DNA from: an uncultured Bacilli bacterium
Lineage (GTDB): Bacteria > Bacillota_I > Bacilli_A > RF39 > UBA660
Direction: 5' to 3'
Assembly (NCBI GenBank): GCA_947624085.1
Contig: CANQIK010000001.1
Location: 1,781 to 65,780, forward strand
DNA length: 64,000 nucleotides
Part shown: positions 743 to 48,845 of the stretch, one piece after another
Position numbering within the stretch: the first letter of the stretch is position 1
Layout of the letters: each line of letters opens with the position of its first letter
Position numbers and translations under genes: made by a program
Notes under the pieces: generated by a model
The model's database searches: none
What the model was told of the DNA's origin: nothing
What the model saw: the letters and a program-made list of their open reading frames with translations, nothing else

Positions 743-2871
<2,129 letters not shown>

Positions 2872-2965
2872 TTACCTCATTTAAATTAAATTAATAGTAT
2901 GATTGCTTATTGCATAATAAGCAATTTTTTGTTAGAATTATTAATAGATACTAGGAGGATTTATT

Positions 2966-3379
2966 ATGGGCTTTTTGAAAAAATTTATGGAAGATTCTGA
3001 TGAATCAAATACTGATATTAGTAATAATGAAGATGGGTTTTATACTGTTAGCAAAGAAGAAGCATTAAAAGAAGCTGATAAAACTGGCAATAAAATGATT
3101 TTACTAGAACCAAGAGCTTATTCTGAATCTCAACAAATTGCTGATCACTTAAAAGCTCGTAATAGTGTAGTTGTAAATCTTAAGAGGGTGACATCAGATC
3201 AAGCTAAAAGAATAATTGACTTTTTAAGTGGCTGTATTTATGCCATAGGAGGAAATATTGAAACTTTAGGTGTCGGTATATATCTTTGCACTCCTAAAAA
3301 TGTTAATGTTCAAGGCAAGATAACTGATGATAGTGATAAAAATAAGGATAATAAAGATTCTGATGAAATAGACTGGTAG
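2966..3379 (+). CDS. sepF: Cell division protein SepF
   Basis: LLEPRAYSESQQIADHLKARNSVVVNL..DQAKRIIDFLSGCIYAIGG matches the SepF/DUF552 core. A DivIVA-domain gene lies immediately downstream. Confidence 0.85.
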   Translation: MGFLKKFMEDSDESNTDISNNEDGFYTVSKEEALKEADKTGNKMILLEPRAYSESQQIADHLKARNSVVVNLKRVTSDQAKRIIDFLSGCIYAIGGNIETLGVGIYLCTPKNVNVQGKITDDSDKNKDNKDSDEIDW

Positions 3380-3391
3380 GGAGGTTATACC

Positions 3392-3817
3392 ATGAAGAAG
3401 TTTAGAACAAGTTTTTCAGGGTATAATAAAACCGATGTAAATGCTTTCGTATCAGAGGTTATCGATGAGTACGAAAATATTTTACGCAAACTGCGGGAAA
3501 GTACCAAAGAAATCGAACATTTAAGAAAAGAGCTGGAGCATTACAAATCAATTGAAAAGTCTTTGCATGATACTCTACTTGTTGCTCAAGAAGCCTCTGC
3601 AAATGCACAAAAGGCCGCTATTAATGAGGGCAAAGTTATTATTGAAGAAGCTAAAACTAATGCCTCTAAAATTGTTAATAATTCCTTAATAAAGGCTCAA
3701 AACATTGAAAGAGAAGCTGAAGAACTAAAAAGAAAGGTTGTTTCATATAAACGGCGATTTATGTCTTTGGTTGAATCACATATGGATGATATCGATAAAT
3801 TTGATGAAAGAATGTAG
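3392..3817 (+). CDS. divIVA: DivIVA-domain cell division/polarity protein
   Basis: The N-terminus FRTSFSGYNKTDVNAFVSEVIDEYE is the DivIVA lipid-binding motif region, followed by coiled coil. It sits downstream of sepF, as in the Bacillus ylm cluster. Confidence 0.75.
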   Translation: MKKFRTSFSGYNKTDVNAFVSEVIDEYENILRKLRESTKEIEHLRKELEHYKSIEKSLHDTLLVAQEASANAQKAAINEGKVIIEEAKTNASKIVNNSLIKAQNIEREAEELKRKVVSYKRRFMSLVESHMDDIDKFDERM

Positions 3818-3828
3818 AGGTAGTATAT

Positions 3829-4638
3829 ATGAAGACAAGAATAATCAGTGCTATAGTTTTAATTTTAATTGTAGCTCTTCCCGTTTACTTTGGGAATCAA
3901 ATTTATGCTCTTTTAATAGGTATTACAGCTTTATTAGGCTTTAAAGAGTTACTTGATTTAAAGAAAACTCATCGTAAGATACCTTTTGGAATGTGTTTAT
4001 TGGCTGTGTTAGCCTTAATGTTAATTATATTCTCTAATTTTAATGGGCGCTCGTTGAACCAAGGCATAACTTATAAAGCATTAATATTTACGGTATTTGG
4101 CTTAATCTTACCAATTATTTTATATAAAAATAATAAGTATACAGCTGAAGATGCTTTCTTTCTAATTGGATCGGTTCTCTTTCTGGGCTTAGGCTTTAGT
4201 TCGTTTATTTTAGTTAGAGCAAGATCAGGAGGAATAGGTCACTTAGGTTTATTCATATACTTAATATTGATACCAATTATTACCGATACTTTTGCTTATA
4301 TAATGGGAACTTTAATAGGAAGACATAAAATGGCTCCTGCTATAAGTCCTAATAAAACTTGGGAAGGTTTTGGTTTTGGCTTAGTAGCAGGTACTATTAT
4401 TCCTACAATTTATTATTTAATTGTTTTAGACAATTTTACTTGGAAAATTATTATATTAACTGCTATACTATCTTGTGCAGGTCAAATTGGTGATTTAATA
4501 TTTAGTAAAATAAAAAGAGAAAATTCTATCAAAGATTATTCTAAATTAATCCCAGGCCATGGTGGTGTCCTTGATCGTTTTGATAGTATGATTATTATTT
4601 TTATGACATTTATTTTCTTATCATCAATATTATATTAA
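3829..4638 (+). CDS. cdsA: Phosphatidate cytidylyltransferase
   Basis: Signature FSKIKRENSIKDYSKLIPGHGGVLDRFDS in a polytopic membrane protein. Confidence 0.92.
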   Translation: MKTRIISAIVLILIVALPVYFGNQIYALLIGITALLGFKELLDLKKTHRKIPFGMCLLAVLALMLIIFSNFNGRSLNQGITYKALIFTVFGLILPIILYKNNKYTAEDAFFLIGSVLFLGLGFSSFILVRARSGGIGHLGLFIYLILIPIITDTFAYIMGTLIGRHKMAPAISPNKTWEGFGFGLVAGTIIPTIYYLIVLDNFTWKIIILTAILSCAGQIGDLIFSKIKRENSIKDYSKLIPGHGGVLDRFDSMIIIFMTFIFLSSILY

Positions 4639-38025: not shown

Positions 38026-38913
38026 ATGAATTATATAGTCAATTTCTTAAGGGGATTTCTTATGGCTTTAGCTGATAGTGTACCCGGCGTTTCCGGAGGT
38101 ACGATTGCCTTTGTTTTAGGCTTTTATGATAATTTTATTACGGCTTTAGATGATTTATTTCGGGGCAATTTCAAAAAGAAAAAAGACGCGTTTTGCTATC
38201 TTTTCAAAATTGGCATAGGTTGGGTAGTAGGTTTTATTATTGCTGCCTCTTTCTTAACATCTTTATTTGAAAATCATATTTATGGCTTATCATCTTTATT
38301 TTTAGGTTTTATTATCATATCTTTACCTTACATTATTAAAGAAGAATATAAAACTTTAAAAGGCAAATATTATAATATTATTTGGTTTTTTGTTGGTCTT
38401 TTATTTGTTGTAGGGATTACTTTACTTAATGGGACTGATATTTTAAATATTAATTTAGCTGAGCCCAATTTCATGAGTTATGTTTATACTTTCTTGGTAG
38501 CAGCGCTTGCTATTTGTGCAATGGTTTTACCAGGTATTTCTGGCTCAACGATATTACTAATCTTTGGCATATATGTACCAATTATGGCTAAGGTTAAACT
38601 TTTATTTAGTTTCGATTTTTCGGTTTTACCGATTTTGATTATTTTTGGCTTAGGCGTTATTTTTGGCATATTTTCTTTTGCTAAAGTCGTTCGTAAAAGT
38701 TTAGATAAAAATCGGGGAGCGGTTGTTTACGGTATTATTGGTATGATGGTTGGTTCCTTATATGCTATTGTAATGGGACCTACTACTTTAGAAAATGCTT
38801 TACCAATGCTTACATCAAATAGCTTTAATTTACCAATGTTTATTTTAGGAGTTGTTATTATTGTTGCTCTTGAAGAAGGTAAAGCTTTACTTGCCAAAAA
38901 AAGGATTAAATAA
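38026..38913 (+). CDS. DUF368 membrane protein (PopT-type candidate undecaprenyl-phosphate translocase family)
   Basis: Duplicated signature ADSVPGVSGGTIAF / VLPGISGSTILL in a polytopic protein. Confidence 0.85.
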   Translation: MNYIVNFLRGFLMALADSVPGVSGGTIAFVLGFYDNFITALDDLFRGNFKKKKDAFCYLFKIGIGWVVGFIIAASFLTSLFENHIYGLSSLFLGFIIISLPYIIKEEYKTLKGKYYNIIWFFVGLLFVVGITLLNGTDILNINLAEPNFMSYVYTFLVAALAICAMVLPGISGSTILLIFGIYVPIMAKVKLLFSFDFSVLPILIIFGLGVIFGIFSFAKVVRKSLDKNRGAVVYGIIGMMVGSLYAIVMGPTTLENALPMLTSNSFNLPMFILGVVIIVALEEGKALLAKKRIK

Positions 38914-40109
38914 TGAAAACTGTTGTCATAGGTGGGGGAGCTTCCGGCATAATAGGAGCTTTAAAAGCAAGTGAACATGATGAAGTAATTATTCTCGAAA
39001 AAAACGATAAACTAGGTAAAAAGCTTTTATTAACAGGTAATGGGCATTGTAATTATTGGCACCAAAATATTGATGTTAGTGCCTATGAAACTGATAGCAA
39101 AGAGGTATTAACAAATATTTTAACTCCAGTTAATATTAATAAAGTATTTAATTATTTATTATCAATAGGGATTTATCCTAAAGAAAAAGAGGGCTTATTA
39201 TATCCTTATTCAAATCAAGCATATAGTTTTAGGGAAGTGCTTGAGCAAAATATTCAAAAAAACCATATTAAGGTTATCTATAATGCTTATGTAAAAGATA
39301 TAAAAAAAGAAGATAATAAGTTTATAATTAGCTTTAATGAAGAAACATTAACTTGTGATAAAGTGATAATTAGTACAGGTTCTAAAGCCTATCCTAAAAC
39401 AGGTAGTACGGGCGACTTTTATCCAATACTGGCAAACCTTGGCCATAAATTAAATCCTGTATATCCGGCTTTAACAAGTCTTAAATGCCAAGGTGATTTT
39501 ATGAATATTTGGTCAGGTATTAGGACTGAGGCTCGGGTTAGTATTTATGTTCAAGATAAATTAAAAAAAGAAGAAGTAGGTGAGGTTCAATTAACTGATT
39601 ATGGCATAAGTGGCGTTTGTGTTTTTAACTTAAGTAGTATTGCTTCCGCACATTTATCAGAAAATGTTAAGATAAAGCTTAATTTTTTGCCTTATGTAAA
39701 AGATTTTTCATCATGGCTTTTACAAAGAAGTAATTTACTGCCAAATTATACTTTAGAAGAAATATTTGAAAGTGTCTTCAGTTATAAATTAAATAGTATT
39801 TTCTTTCATCAAGCCAAAATTAATCCCAAAGCATATTATAAAAGCCTTACTACTAGTGAAATAAAAGCTCTTGAAAATGCCATTACTAACTTTACCCTTG
39901 ATATAATTGATACGGGGGATTTTGCTAAGGCTCAAGTATGTAAAGGAGGCATTTCTTTAATGGATATTAATCCTTTAACTATGGAGTCTAAAGTAATAAG
40001 TAATTTGTATATTACGGGGGAACTTCTTGATGTAAACGGTATATGTGGAGGCTATAATTTAGCTTTTGCCTTTATTTCAGGCTTTATCGCAGGGGATTAT
40101 CATGCTTAA
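38913..40109 (+). CDS. HI0933/BaiN-like NAD(P)/FAD-dependent oxidoreductase
   Basis: VVIGGGASGIIGA dinucleotide motif and GKKLLLTGNGHCN. TAATG overlap with the DUF368 gene. Confidence 0.85.
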   Translation: MKTVVIGGGASGIIGALKASEHDEVIILEKNDKLGKKLLLTGNGHCNYWHQNIDVSAYETDSKEVLTNILTPVNINKVFNYLLSIGIYPKEKEGLLYPYSNQAYSFREVLEQNIQKNHIKVIYNAYVKDIKKEDNKFIISFNEETLTCDKVIISTGSKAYPKTGSTGDFYPILANLGHKLNPVYPALTSLKCQGDFMNIWSGIRTEARVSIYVQDKLKKEEVGEVQLTDYGISGVCVFNLSSIASAHLSENVKIKLNFLPYVKDFSSWLLQRSNLLPNYTLEEIFESVFSYKLNSIFFHQAKINPKAYYKSLTTSEIKALENAITNFTLDIIDTGDFAKAQVCKGGISLMDINPLTMESKVISNLYITGELLDVNGICGGYNLAFAFISGFIAGDYHA

Positions 40110-41676
40110 AGTAAGGCAAATTAAAGTAGACATTTTAACTGATAATGACAAGGCTTTAAAAGAAAGTATCTTAAAAAAATTAAAAATTAGGCAAGATGAA
40201 TTACAGGAATATACCATTTTAAAAAAATCTCTTGACGCTAGAGATAAAAATAATATTAATTATATATATGAAGTTAAAGTAAAAGCCTTAAATGAAGATA
40301 AACTTTTAAATAGAAAATCTAATGATATTGTTTTATTTGAACCTAAAGAATATAAAGCCCCTTTATCAGGCAATATTTTATTAAAACATCGACCTGTTAT
40401 TATCGGTAGTGGACCTGCCGGACTTTTTTGTGCTCTTGTTTTAGCCGAGAATAACTATAAACCAATTATTATTGAGCGGGGTAAAAAAGTCGAGAATAGA
40501 GTTGAAGATGTCTCACTGTTTTGGCAAAAAGGTATTTTAAATCCTAATAGTAATGTTCAATTTGGCGAGGGTGGGGCTGGTACTTTTTCCGATGGCAAGC
40601 TAAATACTTTAATTAAAGATAATGAGGGCTTGGGCCAAAAAGTATTAGAAACATTTGTAAAATATGGAGCACCTAAAGAAATTTTATATGTTAATAAACC
40701 TCACATTGGCACAGACCTTTTACAAAATATTATTAAAAATATGCGGGAAGCTATCATTTTTATGGGTGGTACTTTCTTTTTTGAAGAGACTTTTGAGGAT
40801 TTAGTTATCGAAAATGATACCTTAAAACAAATTAAAACTAATAAACAAAATCTTGCCACTGATGTTCTTGTATTAGCTATTGGGCATAGTGCTAGAGATA
40901 CTTTTTATGTGTTAAATAATTATCTTGATATTAAATCTAAACCATTTGCTATAGGGGTTAGAATATCCCATCCCCAAAAGCAAATTAATGAAAATCAATA
41001 TGGAAAAATGGCTAAATATTTACCACCCGCGGATTATAAACTTACTTATCAAGCTCAAAGTGGGCGCGGAGTATACTCTTTTTGTATGTGCCCAGGAGGC
41101 TATGTTGTAAATTCGTCTAGCGAGAATAAGGCTTTATGCATAAATGGCATGAGTAACTATAAAAGAGATGAAGAAAATGCTAATAGTGCTATTGTTGTTA
41201 CTATTGATAGTAAAGATTATGGCGAAAGTCCTTTAAGTGGTATTGAATTTCAAAGAAAACTTGAACATCTTGCTTATGAAAAAGGTAAAGGTAATATTCC
41301 TACCCAAAGATGGGAAGATTTTAAAAACAATATTGCTTCCCAATCTTTAGGAAATATTAAACCAATATATAAAGGTAATTATTATTTAACAAATTTACAT
41401 GAAATACTTCCTGATTATATTTGCCATGATTTAATTGAAGCGATAGAAAACTTTGGCCATAAGATAAAGGGCTTTAATGATAATGACGCTTTAGTAAGTG
41501 CTGTTGAAAGCCGAACTTCATCACCCGTTAGGATAAAGCGTGATGAAACTTTAATGGCAAATATCAAAGGTGTATATCCTTGTGGCGAAGGAGCAGGGTA
41601 CGCCGGAGGTATAACAAGTAGTGCTATTGATGGCATTAAAGTAGCTCATTCTATTATAGCTAGATATCGTATGTAA
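40102..41676 (+). CDS. FAD-dependent protein (COG2509-type NAD(FAD)-utilising dehydrogenase)
   Basis: VIIGSGPAGLFCAL and GEGGAGTFSDGKL. ATG 40102 overlaps the upstream stop by 8 nt. Confidence 0.85.
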   Translation: MLKVRQIKVDILTDNDKALKESILKKLKIRQDELQEYTILKKSLDARDKNNINYIYEVKVKALNEDKLLNRKSNDIVLFEPKEYKAPLSGNILLKHRPVIIGSGPAGLFCALVLAENNYKPIIIERGKKVENRVEDVSLFWQKGILNPNSNVQFGEGGAGTFSDGKLNTLIKDNEGLGQKVLETFVKYGAPKEILYVNKPHIGTDLLQNIIKNMREAIIFMGGTFFFEETFEDLVIENDTLKQIKTNKQNLATDVLVLAIGHSARDTFYVLNNYLDIKSKPFAIGVRISHPQKQINENQYGKMAKYLPPADYKLTYQAQSGRGVYSFCMCPGGYVVNSSSENKALCINGMSNYKRDEENANSAIVVTIDSKDYGESPLSGIEFQRKLEHLAYEKGKGNIPTQRWEDFKNNIASQSLGNIKPIYKGNYYLTNLHEILPDYICHDLIEAIENFGHKIKGFNDNDALVSAVESRTSSPVRIKRDETLMANIKGVYPCGEGAGYAGGITSSAIDGIKVAHSIIARYRM

Positions 41677-41708
41677 AAAGGATTGGTAATTGAGTGTGCC
41701 AATCCTTT
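41677..41708. terminator. Bidirectional hairpin between convergent genes
   Basis: AAAGGATTGG (41677-41686) pairs with CCAATCCTTT (41699-41708) around a 12-nt loop. Short T/A runs lie on both sides. Confidence 0.55.
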
Positions 41709-42031
41709 TAACTTGCTAATTCTTCAGCTATGTTTTCTACAGTGTCTTTATCAACATCAGTCATCTCTACAATTTTATCTATGGAACAGCCTTTTTTTAG
41801 CATTTCTTCAATAATCGGCTTAATAACTTCGACTTTGCCACTTTCAAATCCTTTTTTAAATTCTTCAGCAAATCCTTGAGCAAATCCTTCAGCAAATGCT
41901 TGAGCAAAGCCAATTTTATATCCTTCTTGATAATTCACTTCTTTTACACTCCTTAACAATTTTTCAGTGTCAGGTTCAACTACATATCCTTCATCCCTTA
42001 ATCTTTGTAATTCTCTATCAATTTCATCCAT
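41708..42031 (-). CDS. Free-standing Rpn-tail module protein (107 aa), divergent copy
   Basis: MDEIDRELQRLRDEG...LLRSVKEVNYQEG, then a GFAQAFAEGFAQGFAEEFKKGFESGK spacer, then MLKKGCSIDKIVEMTDVDKDTV. It has its own RBS AAAGGAAAGGATGA. Confidence 0.6.
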   Translation of the reverse strand: MDEIDRELQRLRDEGYVVEPDTEKLLRSVKEVNYQEGYKIGFAQAFAEGFAQGFAEEFKKGFESGKVEVIKPIIEEMLKKGCSIDKIVEMTDVDKDTVENIAEELAS

Positions 42032-42061
42032 AAATTTATCATCCTTTCCTTTTTGTTATAG

Positions 42062-42364
42062 TTAGTTATTTGCTAATTCTTTAGCAACTTTTTCTACAAT
42101 AACTTTATCAACATCTGTAATATTAATTATATTTTTAGCTGTCATTCCTTTTTTTAGCATATTTTTAATAATGGATTCAATCCCGTCGGTTTTGCCTTTG
42201 ACCTCACCAATTTTAATCCCTTTGGTTATGCCTTTAGCTTCGCCAATTTCAATCCCTTCTTGAAAATTTACTTCTTTTACACTCCTTAACAACTTTTCGG
42301 TATCATCTCTAATTACACAACCGTTAGCTTTTAATCTTTCAAGTTCTCTATCAATTTCATCCAT
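42062..42364 (-). CDS. Free-standing Rpn-tail module protein (100 aa)
   Basis: The DNA is near-identical to the 3' 231 nt of the 267-aa Rpn gene, apart from a 72-bp in-frame insertion. It has its own RBS GGAAAGGA. Confidence 0.65.
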   Translation of the reverse strand: MDEIDRELERLKANGCVIRDDTEKLLRSVKEVNFQEGIEIGEAKGITKGIKIGEVKGKTDGIESIIKNMLKKGMTAKNIINITDVDKVIVEKVAKELANN

Positions 42365-42392
42365 AAATTATCATCCTTTCCTTTTGTTATAG

Positions 42393-42623
42393 TTAGTTAT
42401 TTGCTAATTCTTTAGCAACTTTTTCTACAATAACTTTATCAACATCTGTAATATTAATTATATTTTTAATTGTCATTCCTTTTTTTAGCATATTTTTAAT
42501 AATTGATTCAATCCCTTCTTGATAATTCACTTCTTTTACACTCCTTAACAACTTTTCGGTATCATCTCTAACAACACAACCGTTAGCTTTTAATCTTTGC
42601 AATTCTCTATCAATTTCATCCAT
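42393..42623 (-). CDS. Candidate internally initiated small protein (76 aa, RpnS-like) nested in frame in the Rpn gene
   Basis: In-frame ATG at 42623 lies 7 nt after a perfect AAGGAGGATGA (+ strand 42631-42641). The same ATG begins the two free-standing copies. Confidence 0.4.
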   Translation of the reverse strand: MDEIDRELQRLKANGCVVRDDTEKLLRSVKEVNYQEGIESIIKNMLKKGMTIKNIINITDVDKVIVEKVAKELANN

Positions 42624-43196
42624 AAATTCATCATCCTCCTTAAATTTTTTTAACTCATTTGTTTCCATAGACAGCGCACCTATGTGCCTTACAAAGTCTC
42701 GATTATCGCCTTCATAACACAGCTTTAACGCCTTATCCAAATTTACTTCATATATTTGAACATTTTTACAATATTCCTTTTCTCCTAGGGTTAAATTCAC
42801 TTCATTTATGACATCAAATGTCTGACTTAGACCTCGAGTTAGACTAATTAACACATAGTTTTTATTAGTTTTATATGTTTTTCCTTCTTCTTGGTCTTGA
42901 TTAATAATATTAAAAAAATATAATAAATTACGAAAAATTACTACTGTGTCAAAACAACTATTTACTTCAATATCAATTCTTTCTTCTTTATTATCAATTA
43001 ATAAATCTAGTGTTTCAGCTTTTTGCGATATTTTATTAACGGGTATTTCTTTACTAATAAAAGTTATATTATTAATATTTCTTCCCAAAATATCTTTTAA
43101 TAGTTTTTTTAGTAATATTTTTCCTTTTTCAGTACTAAATATAGCTTTAAAAACTTTATCATTGTATCCTCTTATATCTTTGGTGCTATTATTCAT
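42393..43196 (-). CDS. Rpn family recombination-promoting nuclease / putative transposase (PD-(D/E)XK, PDDEXK_2-like)
   Basis: N-terminus YNDKVFKAIFSTEKGKILLKKLLKDILG and LDLLIDNKEERIDIEVN (D...ExE/Q-type core). The C-terminal tail ends in an HTH-like IIKNMLKKGMTIKNIINITDVDKVIVEKV. Confidence 0.75.
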   Translation of the reverse strand: MNNSTKDIRGYNDKVFKAIFSTEKGKILLKKLLKDILGRNINNITFISKEIPVNKISQKAETLDLLIDNKEERIDIEVNSCFDTVVIFRNLLYFFNIINQDQEEGKTYKTNKNYVLISLTRGLSQTFDVINEVNLTLGEKEYCKNVQIYEVNLDKALKLCYEGDNRDFVRHIGALSMETNELKKFKEDDEFMDEIDRELQRLKANGCVVRDDTEKLLRSVKEVNYQEGIESIIKNMLKKGMTIKNIINITDVDKVIVEKVAKELANN

Positions 43197-43460
43197 GTTA
43201 TATTTTTAGGGTTCTAATTATCTTTTGATGTTTAGAGCTTCTTCTCCTTTCCTTTTAAGTTTTAGTTAATGGTTTTATAAAAATATTTATACCATGCAAT
43301 ATTCCTCCCTTTACATTTATATATTACGGAAAAAATTCTCATTTCCTTTTTTATTTAGTAAATTTTTTAAAAATATTTAAAATTCGTTATGTAAAGCAAA
43401 AATTAGACTAATATAAAATATTATTATTTTTTGTTATACTAAAAACTGGAGATGATAAAA

Positions 43461-44307: not shown

Positions 44308-45150
44308 ATGGAAAAAAGAAACACGTTATTATTAACAATTATAGCAATAGCAACATTGCTAGTAGCAGTAGTAGGTGCCACATTTGCATACTTTGCTTCA
44401 ACAACTGATACAAATAGTGGAAAGGTCAATTTGAATGTAGAAACAGCAAACAAAACAGCAACATTTACAGCTGTAGGTGGTGGCGATATGAATATAAATG
44501 TTACAGCTGATTTAATGCAAGAGTCTAATGCAGGAGATGGTGGAGCGCAACAAACAGCTAATGGTACTTTAGACGCAAATTTAACTGCCAATTCAAATAT
44601 CAATGTATCATTAAATTCACCAACAGAGGGACAACTTGTAACATGCTCATATGATTTAGTATTTGAATGGGCCAATGATAGTAAAAGTAATTATAAAAAT
44701 GGAGAGGGCTCAGATGGTAATAGTTATAAAAACTTAAATACAGACTCTCAAAATGGCGTTCAAATTGGTGACGATGGTGATAAAAAATATTATCCAAGCA
44801 CTTATTATGTAAGAACTGGATATAAAGCTTCTGGTACAGACCATGATAATATTCAAGGCTTTAAAGAGCTTACTATCGATGTTGCTTCTACAACTTATAC
44901 TGGCGATGATGATGGCCGTGGGTCAAGCGGTTCAAGTTTAGAAGAAATTAATATTGATGAGTTAAAACTTGGTAGTGATAATAAAACTTTAACTTTATTA
45001 AAAGGCGAAGAGATTTCAACTGATAAGGAAACTGGCGCTCACATAGACTATGAAATTACTGTTAGATTTTATAATTTAGATAAAGACCAATCACATTTGA
45101 TGGGCAAAACATTTAAAGGTACTGTTTCTGTAGCAAATTATCATTGTTAA
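44308..45150 (+). CDS. Secreted protein with a SipW-dependent (TasA/camelysin-type) signal peptide
   Basis: The N-terminus LLLTIIAIATLLVAVVGATFAYFASTTDT matches the GATFAYF(S/T)D class of signal peptides. The mature part is Asn/Gly/Asp-rich. Confidence 0.6.
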   Translation: MEKRNTLLLTIIAIATLLVAVVGATFAYFASTTDTNSGKVNLNVETANKTATFTAVGGGDMNINVTADLMQESNAGDGGAQQTANGTLDANLTANSNINVSLNSPTEGQLVTCSYDLVFEWANDSKSNYKNGEGSDGNSYKNLNTDSQNGVQIGDDGDKKYYPSTYYVRTGYKASGTDHDNIQGFKELTIDVASTTYTGDDDGRGSSGSSLEEINIDELKLGSDNKTLTLLKGEEISTDKETGAHIDYEITVRFYNLDKDQSHLMGKTFKGTVSVANYHC

Positions 45151-47510: not shown

Positions 47511-48845
47511 ATGGCTAGATTGAAACGCAAAATTGATGAATTTTTACTAAAATGGCAAACTTCGGAAGATAAAATGCCCCTTATTGTCAAAGGCGCAAGA
47601 CAAATAGGCAAAACGGACGCTATTGAAAACTTTGCTAAAAATAATTATAAATATGTAGTGGAAATAAATTTTGCTTTACAAAAAGAATATAAAACGATAT
47701 TTGATGATGGTTTTGAGGTTGATACTATTATCAATAATATTTCTATCATAAATAATAATTTTAAATTTGTCCCTCGTGAAACTTTGATATTTTTTGATGA
47801 AATGCAAGATTGTATAAACTGTGCTACTTCATTAAAATCTTTTAATCTTGACAAAAGATATGATGTAATTTGTTCTGGTTCTATGATGGGTATTAATTAT
47901 AAAGAAATTGAGTCTAATAGTGTCGGTAATAAAATAGATTATACAATGCATTCCATGGATTTTGAAGAATTTTTATGGGCTAAAGGTTATAGTGAAGACC
48001 AGATAGAGGACTTATACTTATGTATGAAAAATCTTAAGCCCCTTACAACAACGCAATTTAATGTTATGATGCATAACTTTAGAGATTACATGATTTTAGG
48101 AGGTATGCCGGCCATTGTTGATAAATTTATTAAAAGTAAAAATTTCAGTGGTATATTACCTATGCAAGAACAAATTTTAAAAGATTATGAAGAAGATATT
48201 GCTAAATATGCCCAAGGCTTTGATAAAGCTAGAATTTTAAATGCTTATCGCAAAGTATCAACATTTTTAGGTAATGAAAATAAAAAATTTCAAATATCTA
48301 AAATAGCGGAGGGAGCTAGAAATAGGGAATATGTAAGGGCTTTAAACTGTTTATCGGACGCTGGAATCATAAATGTTTGTTATTGTATGGAAGATTGTGC
48401 TCTTCCCCTTAAAGGAAATTATAATCCGGATAATTATCGCTTATATTTTGCCGACACAGGTATTCTTATAGCTTCTCTTGATGATGAAGCCCAAGAAGAT
48501 TTACGTAAAAATCAAAATTTTAATACCTATAAAGGTGCTATCTATGAAAATATTGTTGCCGATATGTTAGTAAAAGAGGGTTATCAACTTTATTTTTATA
48601 AAAATGAAAAGGGTACAATTGAAATGGATTTCTTTATAAGAGATAGTAATTCTTTAATACCTGTTGAAGTAAAAGCTAATGATAATGCTACCGTATCATT
48701 AAATAAATTAATAGATAGTGAACAATTTAAAGATATAAAATATGGAATTAAATTGGGTAATAAAAATATTGGTTTTAATGGAAAATTTTATACATTCCCT
48801 TATTTTATGGCTATTTTTTTAAAAAGATTTCTTAATGACAAATAA
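47511..48845 (+). CDS. AAA+ ATPase with a DUF4143 C-terminal domain (COG1373 type)
   Basis: Walker A GARQIGKT and Walker B LIFFDEMQ. Length and layout are typical of AAA_14 + DUF4143 proteins. Confidence 0.85.
   Translation: MARLKRKIDEFLLKWQTSEDKMPLIVKGARQIGKTDAIENFAKNNYKYVVEINFALQKEYKTIFDDGFEVDTIINNISIINNNFKFVPRETLIFFDEMQDCINCATSLKSFNLDKRYDVICSGSMMGINYKEIESNSVGNKIDYTMHSMDFEEFLWAKGYSEDQIEDLYLCMKNLKPLTTTQFNVMMHNFRDYMILGGMPAIVDKFIKSKNFSGILPMQEQILKDYEEDIAKYAQGFDKARILNAYRKVSTFLGNENKKFQISKIAEGARNREYVRALNCLSDAGIINVCYCMEDCALPLKGNYNPDNYRLYFADTGILIASLDDEAQEDLRKNQNFNTYKGAIYENIVADMLVKEGYQLYFYKNEKGTIEMDFFIRDSNSLIPVEVKANDNATVSLNKLIDSEQFKDIKYGIKLGNKNIGFNGKFYTFPYFMAIFLKRFLNDK

Follow-up and report, generated by a model that had tools for sequence, protein, structure and literature searches.

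A probable Rpn-type gene-within-gene locus extended by two tandem stand-alone tail genes in an uncultured Bacilli bacterium

The nuclease-like gene, its nested tail and the genes behind it

Here we describe a locus on the minus strand of contig CANQIK010000001.1 from an uncultured Bacilli bacterium, analysed as a window of 64 kb (the whole stretch of DNA under study, with a GC content of 28%), in which a gene resembling those of the Rpn nucleases holds its own C-terminal tail as an in-frame nested frame and is followed by two tandem genes that consist of this tail module alone. The rpnL-like gene, an open reading frame (ORF) of 267 amino acids (aa) seen in both the ORF list and the sequence at 43196-42393, encodes a PD-(D/E)XK domain of the PDDEXK_2 type over approximately residues 12-190 and then the C-terminal tail. 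Within its end, and in the same frame, lies an rpnS-like frame of 76 aa that carries no four-residue repeats (42393-42623), and downstream come stand-alone tail gene 2 (rpnSs-like; 100 aa, six four-residue repeats; 42062-42364) and stand-alone tail gene 3 (107 aa, diverged in sequence, about eight GFAx-type repeats; 41708-42031), both on the same strand. This order, from 43196 down to 41708, had been described by a first-pass annotation made from the letters alone, and all of the coordinates and sequences that it gave for the locus proved accurate. A tandem period of 331 nucleotides (nt) runs across the locus (Tandem Repeats Finder, TRF). The 267+100+107 arrangement was also assembled independently in sample ERZ27249368 (contigs L013/L025), and a part of it in ERZ27249360 (L024), so the three-gene layout is no artefact of the window, and the observation of a nuclease-like gene with a nested tail and two spare tails is confirmed as real.

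Comparison of the 267-aa protein with Pfam revealed a match to PDDEXK_2 (PF12784) of 55.9 bits (E=6.6e-15; cutoff 27.4 bits), which, together with a match to the NCBIfam Rpn model TIGR01784 and an hhalign alignment to E. coli RpnE, bears out the earlier assignment of an Rpn/PDDEXK_2-like PD-(D/E)XK domain to the N-terminus. The family profile aligned with RpnE across both domains (hhalign probability 77.5%) such that the D..FK motif, D64 and IEVNS fell on RpnE residues (IEHQS for the last), with D64 and E77 both present and in register with their RpnE counterparts. A phmmer search of the full protein against PDB sequences gave no relevant match, and PADLOC returned none for the nuclease.

The tail opens at an in-frame ATG (42623-42621), and the Shine-Dalgarno (SD)-like AAGGAGGATGA on the same strand (42641-42631) ends 7 nt 5' of it. 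The methionine encoded there, M192, is nearly invariant in the family alignment, and an internal SD with ATG marks the domain boundary in each of the 10 related loci, the lowest at 25% protein identity, against a background in the window of only 1.8-3.2% of internal in-frame ATGs that carry an SD-like motif; the position of the start, as first claimed, was thus verified together with its conservation. In the stand-alone copies the homologous sequence, GGATGAT(G)AATTT-ATG, is the sole start. At the sequence level, then, the internal start has the form expected of an Rpn gene within a gene, and we infer that it is translated. One could instead take the internal ATG for an ordinary methionine codon of a single protein, with only the downstream ORFs supplying a free tail; the distance from the GGAGG core to the ATG is 11 nt, towards the upper limit of what is usual, and a consensus promoter scan, weak at 28% GC, gave more sites in shuffled sequence than in the real one, where none lay just 5' of the internal start. 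We nevertheless hold this single-protein alternative to be very improbable, given that the SD-like motif and ATG are kept at the boundary in 10 loci against the roughly 3% background and that their homologue is all that starts the stand-alone genes. In E. coli, an internal promoter yields a short RpnS transcript.

The start of the full-length gene looks different. No SD adjoins its ATG, either in the window or in the related species represented by contig L003, as the first-pass annotation had remarked for the window, and an in-frame TAA stands 12 nt upstream. Abutting this ATG is a 5' leader of about 36 nt (AGCTCTAAACATCAAAAGATAATTAG..., 43197-43232) that is near-identical in L003 (4965-5000) and in L004, whereas the remaining intergenic region has diverged. 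This conserved leader may be an operator or a translational control element, and RNAalifold found no convincing conserved structure in it. Further upstream, a candidate extended -10 element, TGgTATAAA, lies at 43286-43294 (minus strand); it was missed by the consensus scan because it has no -35 element, and L003 and the paralogous locus L005 have GGTATATATAA(T) in its place.

Tails 2 and 3 both start with MDEIDREL and each stands behind GGAAAGGA, which agrees with the earlier statement that the downstream genes share this beginning and keep their own ribosome-binding sites. For tail 2 the GGAAAGGA site lies at 42374-42381 within the inter-unit junction TAACTAACTATAACAAAAGGAAAGGATGATAATTT, and for tail 3 the site is part of AAGGAAAGGA at 42042-42051, in the second junction. 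AAGGAAAGGA occurs only three times in the 64 kb, where 0.3 would be expected: once at each of the two unit junctions and once in the rpnL leader (43254-43245). There too TAACTAA stands a few bases 5' of it, forming a junction-like relic (TAACTAA...AAAAGGAAAGGA, 43245-43268) that is SD-like with no start codon behind it. The left side of each junction is leader-like (TAACTAA...AAAAGGAAAGGA), and the right side is like the internal start (GGATGAT(G)AATTT-ATG). This is suggestive of whole-gene tandem duplicates that later lost their nuclease part between two SD-like elements, and other histories would fit as well. The upstream motif pointed out in the first-pass annotation is therefore real, but its reading as an older unit boundary is suggestive only, and L003 does not have the motif.

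Directly 3' of tail 3 there is a terminator-like hairpin with an 11-bp stem (AAAAGGAUUGG...CCAAUCCUUUU, 41676-41709, minus strand), which folds as RNA at -14.9 kcal/mol (z=-4.0), sits between convergent genes and is kept in L003 and in the related contig L022. A consensus terminator scan found nothing, this hairpin included. It is the sole terminator-like structure in the three-gene block, with none between the genes, and the three ORFs are probably carried on one shared transcript that ends there.

Sequence, repeats and conservation of the tails

A tblastn search with the full protein recovered the two extra tails (E=3e-37 and 3e-23) and no copy elsewhere in the 64 kb. Between the nested tail and tail 2 we counted 10 substitutions (4 synonymous, 6 non-synonymous) and a single 72-nt (24-aa) indel, outside which they are about 96% identical in nt, so that the closer copy is, as described before, nearly the same as the nested tail but for one indel. 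The 72-nt block (GIEIGEAKGITKGIKIGEVKGKTD in translation; 42185-42256, minus strand) is present in tail 2 and not in the nested tail, its placement being ambiguous by 9 nt because it is bounded by the direct repeat GGGATTGAA, and TRF reports a period-36 array at 42176-42259. Tail 3 shares approximately 53% aa identity with tail 2 (ratio of non-synonymous to synonymous rates, dN/dS, 0.49), with the strongest differences in the repeat block, which supports the earlier view of a distal copy diverged above all in its glycine-rich spacer. That spacer turned out to be a run of four-residue repeats with 12-nt periodicity (the tail 3 core, 41858-41908 on the minus strand, has period 12, 4.2 copies and 87% matches in TRF); the nested tail has no such repeat, tail 2 has six and tail 3 about eight. 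The exact tail 2 protein recurs in an independent sample, and the identical tail 3 protein was found on 5 other contigs.

The tails could be connected to Rpn proteins by several comparisons. Tails 2 and 3 match the C-terminal part of TIGR01784 (positions 196-273) at E=1.5e-5 and E=1.7e-7, and the tail profile aligns with E. coli YpaA/RpnE-Ss at an hhalign probability of 81%, while its match to the RpnA-S crystal structure 7TH0 is marginal (E=0.068). The AlphaFold2 model of tail 2 has a short helix, a long helix over residues 20-71 that holds the repeats, and two short helices, which agrees with the published description of RpnS, so that the modelled tail has the RpnS-type long repeat helix followed by a small helical bundle. 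The C-terminal part of the tails is helix-turn-helix (HTH)-like, matching the E-helix and HTH of gamma-delta resolvase (E=2e-4), and the tail of a relative matches Pfam HTH_38 (6.5e-5). Scattered low-probability Foldseek matches of the models to PD-(D/E)XK enzymes and to resolvase and TrpR helix-plus-HTH folds were set aside and are not taken as evidence.

Two side observations concern the same region. The C-terminal part (IIKNMLKKGMsxeeIaxiTxvdxxxVexi) matches the five tandem repeats of PDB entry 8vd6 ("CAP repeat") at E=3e-14, far better than it matches 7TH0. Tails 2 and 3 also weakly match the PADLOC model PDLC01084, a 90-position "putative invertase" model of a candidate system (E=5e-4). 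The Rpn family once bore an "invertase" annotation, and a free tail-like protein may sit unrecognised in this candidate defence system.

Protein homologues are few, with 10 among 5.8 billion clusters, all from uncultured Bacilli or Clostridia, and the close ones come from metagenome-assembled genomes (MAGs) labelled "Lapin", apparently rabbit; the rpn lineage of this locus is rare. The gene order PNP - rpn - tail - FAD (flavin adenine dinucleotide)-dependent protein is kept in L003/L004 and in L022/L023, whose alignments to the window show about 74-80% nt identity. L003 and L022, from two further MAGs of the same (apparently rabbit) gut study, each have one intact stand-alone tail with its own SD after the rpn stop codon, of 95 aa with five repeats in L003 and of 76 aa with one repeat, the same as its nested tail, in L022. 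Repeat number also varies among the full-length proteins of close homologues (267 versus 291, 274 versus 278 and 323 versus 349 aa). The 5' halves of the nested and stand-alone tails of L003 are identical, whereas the 3' halves have diverged, which we read as a sign of gene conversion.

These comparisons bear on whether the stand-alone ORFs are simply neutral by-products of a recombination-prone repeat, that is, recent functionless duplicates that have not yet decayed. Such a reading draws on tail 2 having diverged by only about 4% from the nested tail, with 4 synonymous and 6 non-synonymous differences being too few for proof of selection, on a unit number that may differ between near-identical contigs, and on the annotation of E. 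coli ypaA as a pseudogene in RefSeq. Against it, an intact, SD-bearing tail is found at the same position in the two MAGs at about 74-80% DNA identity, tail 3, although old (dS to the other tails about 0.6), is intact and has dN/dS of 0.3-0.5, none of 9 contigs has a frameshift or stop, and the YpaA protein has been detected in E. coli (PMC10400941). The first-pass annotation had named pseudogene decay in relatives as something that would overturn its proposal, and this is not what we see: every relative has its small ORFs intact, and pairs of tail copies give dN/dS of 0.31-0.51, so the test does not refute the proposal. We consider neutral duplication quite unlikely.

Free-standing tails are common in nature beyond this rare lineage, as a tail profile search of 1.84 billion representatives returned 1437 clusters at E<=0.001 and 89 of the top 147 matches were proteins of at most 160 aa (70-160 aa) with repeats and an HTH-like end. 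A scan of metagenome contigs with the tail alignment found no relatives. Among single finds, contig L021 (ERZ27249440, 631 nt) encodes an 87-aa tail homologue (P0014; gene 116-379, start context GGAGATGATATTTT-ATG), and the 115 nt upstream of it are stop-rich in all frames, such that it may be an orphan tail gene with no adjacent nuclease. A distinct group of 79-105-aa proteins from soil and other metagenomes (P0013, P0019, P0022, P0034 and P0042) starts with MFQLHDLR(K/E)S(K/R)VWQEA, continues with GFAxGF-type repeats and ends in an HTH-like part; one such gene, at 1173-1436 of contig L018, follows a 207-aa ORF that has no Pfam match. Members of this group may be stand-alone RpnS-like proteins of another lineage.

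Recombination between units and the possible roles of the extra tails

Two contigs, L001 and L002, with flanks identical to the window, encode a 291-aa nuclease followed directly by tail 3. In the tail of this nuclease all 5' diagnostic sites are those of the nested tail of the window and all 3' diagnostic sites, including the 72-nt repeat block, are those of tail 2, with the switch point inside a 43-nt identical stretch. The form would follow from a single homologous crossover of the nested tail with tail 2, in which one unit is deleted and the nuclease gains six repeats. Several points count against a natural recombinant: L001 and L002 have a coverage of about 3x along with flanks identical to the window, contig L017 (assembled at k=31 in Logan) is a different mosaic, and assembly collapse of units that are 96% identical may lie behind the two-unit contigs. 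No linked single-nucleotide polymorphism (SNP) haplotype separates two-unit from three-unit strains in the flanks, as these are identical, and this leaves the claim of polymorphism exposed to the collapse explanation. The two-unit form was seen in 3 independent assemblies, whereas the three-unit form was resolved by 2 others of similar coverage, which makes us lean towards a real polymorphism, and we think it fairly likely that the difference is genuine. Two-unit contigs come from ERZ27249370, ERZ27249363 and ERR10663776, and a three-unit contig from ERZ27249368.

Bringing these results together, we interpret the locus as probably an Rpn-type gene-within-gene toxin-antitoxin system to which two stand-alone copies of its tail have been added in tandem. 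By analogy with E. coli, the full-length RpnL-like product would be a PD-(D/E)XK DNA nuclease whose C-terminal helical tail mediates oligomerisation, and the internal SD and ATG would yield a free 76-aa RpnS-like tail that binds the tail of the long protein and holds the nuclease inactive until some trigger, possibly phage infection, frees it. Every tail is preceded by a strong SD while the long protein has none, so the tails should be in excess. The two downstream genes would have arisen when the unit [SD - ATG - tail - stop - spacer] was duplicated in tandem, and recombination between units would delete a unit and at the same time hand the nuclease another tail. The sequence itself shows the anatomy, homology, conservation and repeat variation, whereas toxicity, neutralisation, defence and co-transcription are presumed.

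What weighs against the Rpn-type interpretation comes from several directions. The TIGR01784 match of the full protein (E=2.8e-10, 40.5 bits) falls under the cutoff of 52.1. The third catalytic position is N79 (IEVNS) and not the Q/K of characterised Rpn/PD-(D/E)XK enzymes, and RpnE itself carries an "inactive" annotation. Confidence in the AlphaFold2 models is modest (predicted local distance difference test, pLDDT, 71 for the full-length protein, and 62 for tail 2 with low confidence in the repeat region), and Foldseek against PDB with the full-length and tail models returned nothing at E<=0.001. DUF4351 (PF14261) did not match any of the three tails or 7 related tails at E<=1. The neighbours of the locus are housekeeping genes and no defence island, and the spacing of the internal SD noted above belongs here as well. 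Finally, if the E. coli rule holds, the repeat mismatch (none against six and about eight) means that tails 2 and 3 should not neutralise the resident nuclease. With regard to catalysis, N79 is conserved in 10 of 10 homologues, and an asparagine at this position kept throughout the family makes nuclease activity plausible but unproven.

The first-pass annotation had proposed spare or cross-reacting antitoxins for the extra tails. By sequence they are indeed Rpn-type tails, but cross-reaction does not fit the repeat numbers (0, 6 and about 8) under the E. coli rule, in which repeats set the specificity and a one-repeat mismatch abolished neutralisation (PMC10400941). Since repeat number sets partner specificity in E. 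coli and the tails here differ in it, spare or alternative specificity modules are more likely than extra doses of the cognate antitoxin, and tails 2 and 3 may serve as such modules, as regulators or as decoys. Plain antitoxin function is possible in some strains, since the nested and the free tail of L022 agree in repeat number.

Pressed further, this argument would make the extra tails no antitoxins of the adjacent nuclease at all but a reservoir of specificities to be swapped in, HTH-type DNA-binding regulators of the operon, or both. Consistent with such roles are the mismatched repeat counts, the L001/L002 tail composed of a nested 5' part and a tail 2 3' part with six repeats, the L003 tails that are the same in the 5' half and diverged in the 3' half in the manner of gene conversion, and the HTH-like C-terminal part with its resolvase and HTH_38 matches. 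Fusion by deletion, however, is one-way and consumes a cassette instead of switching reversibly, the equal repeat numbers in L022 are compatible with a plain antitoxin, and the recombinant contigs are possibly assembly artefacts, so that we find the reservoir or regulator reading doubtful overall. Its most specific form, in which the downstream tails are a cassette store, inert towards the resident nuclease, that re-equips the nuclease and nested antitoxin by recombination or gene conversion, seems unlikely to us. If it were true, nuclease and nested antitoxin would receive a new oligomerisation or specificity module in one step, near-clonal populations would contain mixed Rpn specificities, and the 291-aa chimeric allele with window-identical flanks would be one natural switch caught.

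Relation to known systems and neighbouring genes

The probable Rpn-type reading of the locus places it beside systems already described. Separate rpnS genes downstream of rpnE (ypaA) and rpnC (rpnCSs) have been reported (Zhong et al. 2023 PNAS, PMC10400941), where each stand-alone copy arose from its own upstream tail by duplication, copies vary in repeats and are lost by deletion or fusion, and the YpaA protein was detected in E. coli; second RpnS copies are also mentioned in a commentary by Koonin (PMC10400984). The first-pass annotation knew of no description of an expanded tail array, but downstream rpnS copies were thus on record. Larger tail arrays were not found in the papers searched that postdate Zhong et al. 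2023, the supplementary tables of that paper lying outside this search. The layout of nuclease, nested tail and downstream copy is accordingly known from E. coli since 2023 and is no new category.

Comparing the loci directly revealed a close likeness. In MG1655, ypaA follows the rpnE stop codon, begins at the AAAGGAGAGATTA-ATG that is also found at the internal start, has one KLEG repeat more than the nested tail, and is the pseudogene of RefSeq mentioned above. Like rpnE-ypaA and rpnC-rpnCSs, the locus here has a gene of the PD-(D/E)XK Rpn nuclease type with an in-frame internal SD and ATG for its tail, and like rpnE-ypaA it has a tail copy right after the stop codon that carries the copied internal SD, stems from the tail of the gene before it, has another number of four-residue repeats than the nested tail (one more KLEG in ypaA; 0, 6 and about 8 here), and is predicted to form a long repeat-bearing helix followed by a small helical or HTH-like part. 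It differs in having two tandem stand-alone copies in place of one, in a PDDEXK_2 (PF12784) domain instead of the YhgA type with E-x-N instead of E-x-Q, and in its host, a low-GC uncultured Bacilli bacterium, with a housekeeping neighbourhood. About 36 residues precede the repeats here, compared with 8-20 in the published set of RpnS, and there is an extra short N-terminal helix.

Two further groups are worth setting alongside. Stand-alone DUF4351 (PF14261) proteins likewise consist of the Rpn C-terminal module only, and in some species separate rpnS genes are annotated with this domain (Zhong et al. 2023, PMC10400941), whereas the tails here, having no PF14261 match, would by sequence be another subfamily of the same kind of module. 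Type II toxin-antitoxin systems similarly have a toxic enzyme curbed by an excess of a small, helical, HTH-like protein, and extra antitoxin-like genes are possible there; here, in contrast, the proposed antitoxin is a piece of the toxin itself, a dominant-negative oligomerisation domain encoded inside the toxin gene, and it is this piece that the extra copies duplicate. A transposon or insertion sequence (IS) reading of the "putative transposase" annotation was ruled out by the same genomic position between species and the absence of terminal repeats, and the literature also argues against a transposase function of Rpn (Zhong et al. 2023, PMC10400941).

What is new at this locus are the two stand-alone copies, their conserved position in related gut Bacilli and the internal start kept down to 25% protein identity, along with the chimeric nuclease tail on near-identical contigs, which is either a natural recombinant or an assembly collapse. 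The Rpn layout of nuclease, nested tail and duplicated free tails would thereby reach genes of the PDDEXK_2 type in uncultured gut bacteria of low GC content. Annotation routinely overlooks small genes of this kind or labels them pseudogenes, and a conserved internal start helps to call them. With one nuclease next to tails of 0, 6 and about 8 repeats, the locus would also offer a compact natural test of repeat-set RpnL-RpnS specificity, and could show what purpose free tail copies serve.

The surrounding genes gave a few observations of their own. Adjoining the PNP gene, 44308-45150 (plus strand) encodes a 280-aa protein with a hydrophobic, signal-like N-terminal segment (…TFAYFAST) and no Pfam match. 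At the position of this gene L003 has three tandem genes of 251-268 aa (1430-3953), at least two of which share DNA similarity with the start of the 280-aa gene in the window, so that the gene and the trio look like a variable, locally expanding family of secreted proteins. The AAA_14 and DUF4143 ATPase gene at 47511-48845 (plus strand), approximately 4 kb from the rpn locus and beside uvrC, is otherwise unremarkable. On the other side lie two adjacent FAD-dependent/HI0933-like genes (38913-40109 and 40066-41676, both plus strand); the second, listed with a TTG start, overlaps the first by 44 nt and spans 536 aa, compared with calls of 524 aa in its relatives, and its true start is probably 12 codons downstream.

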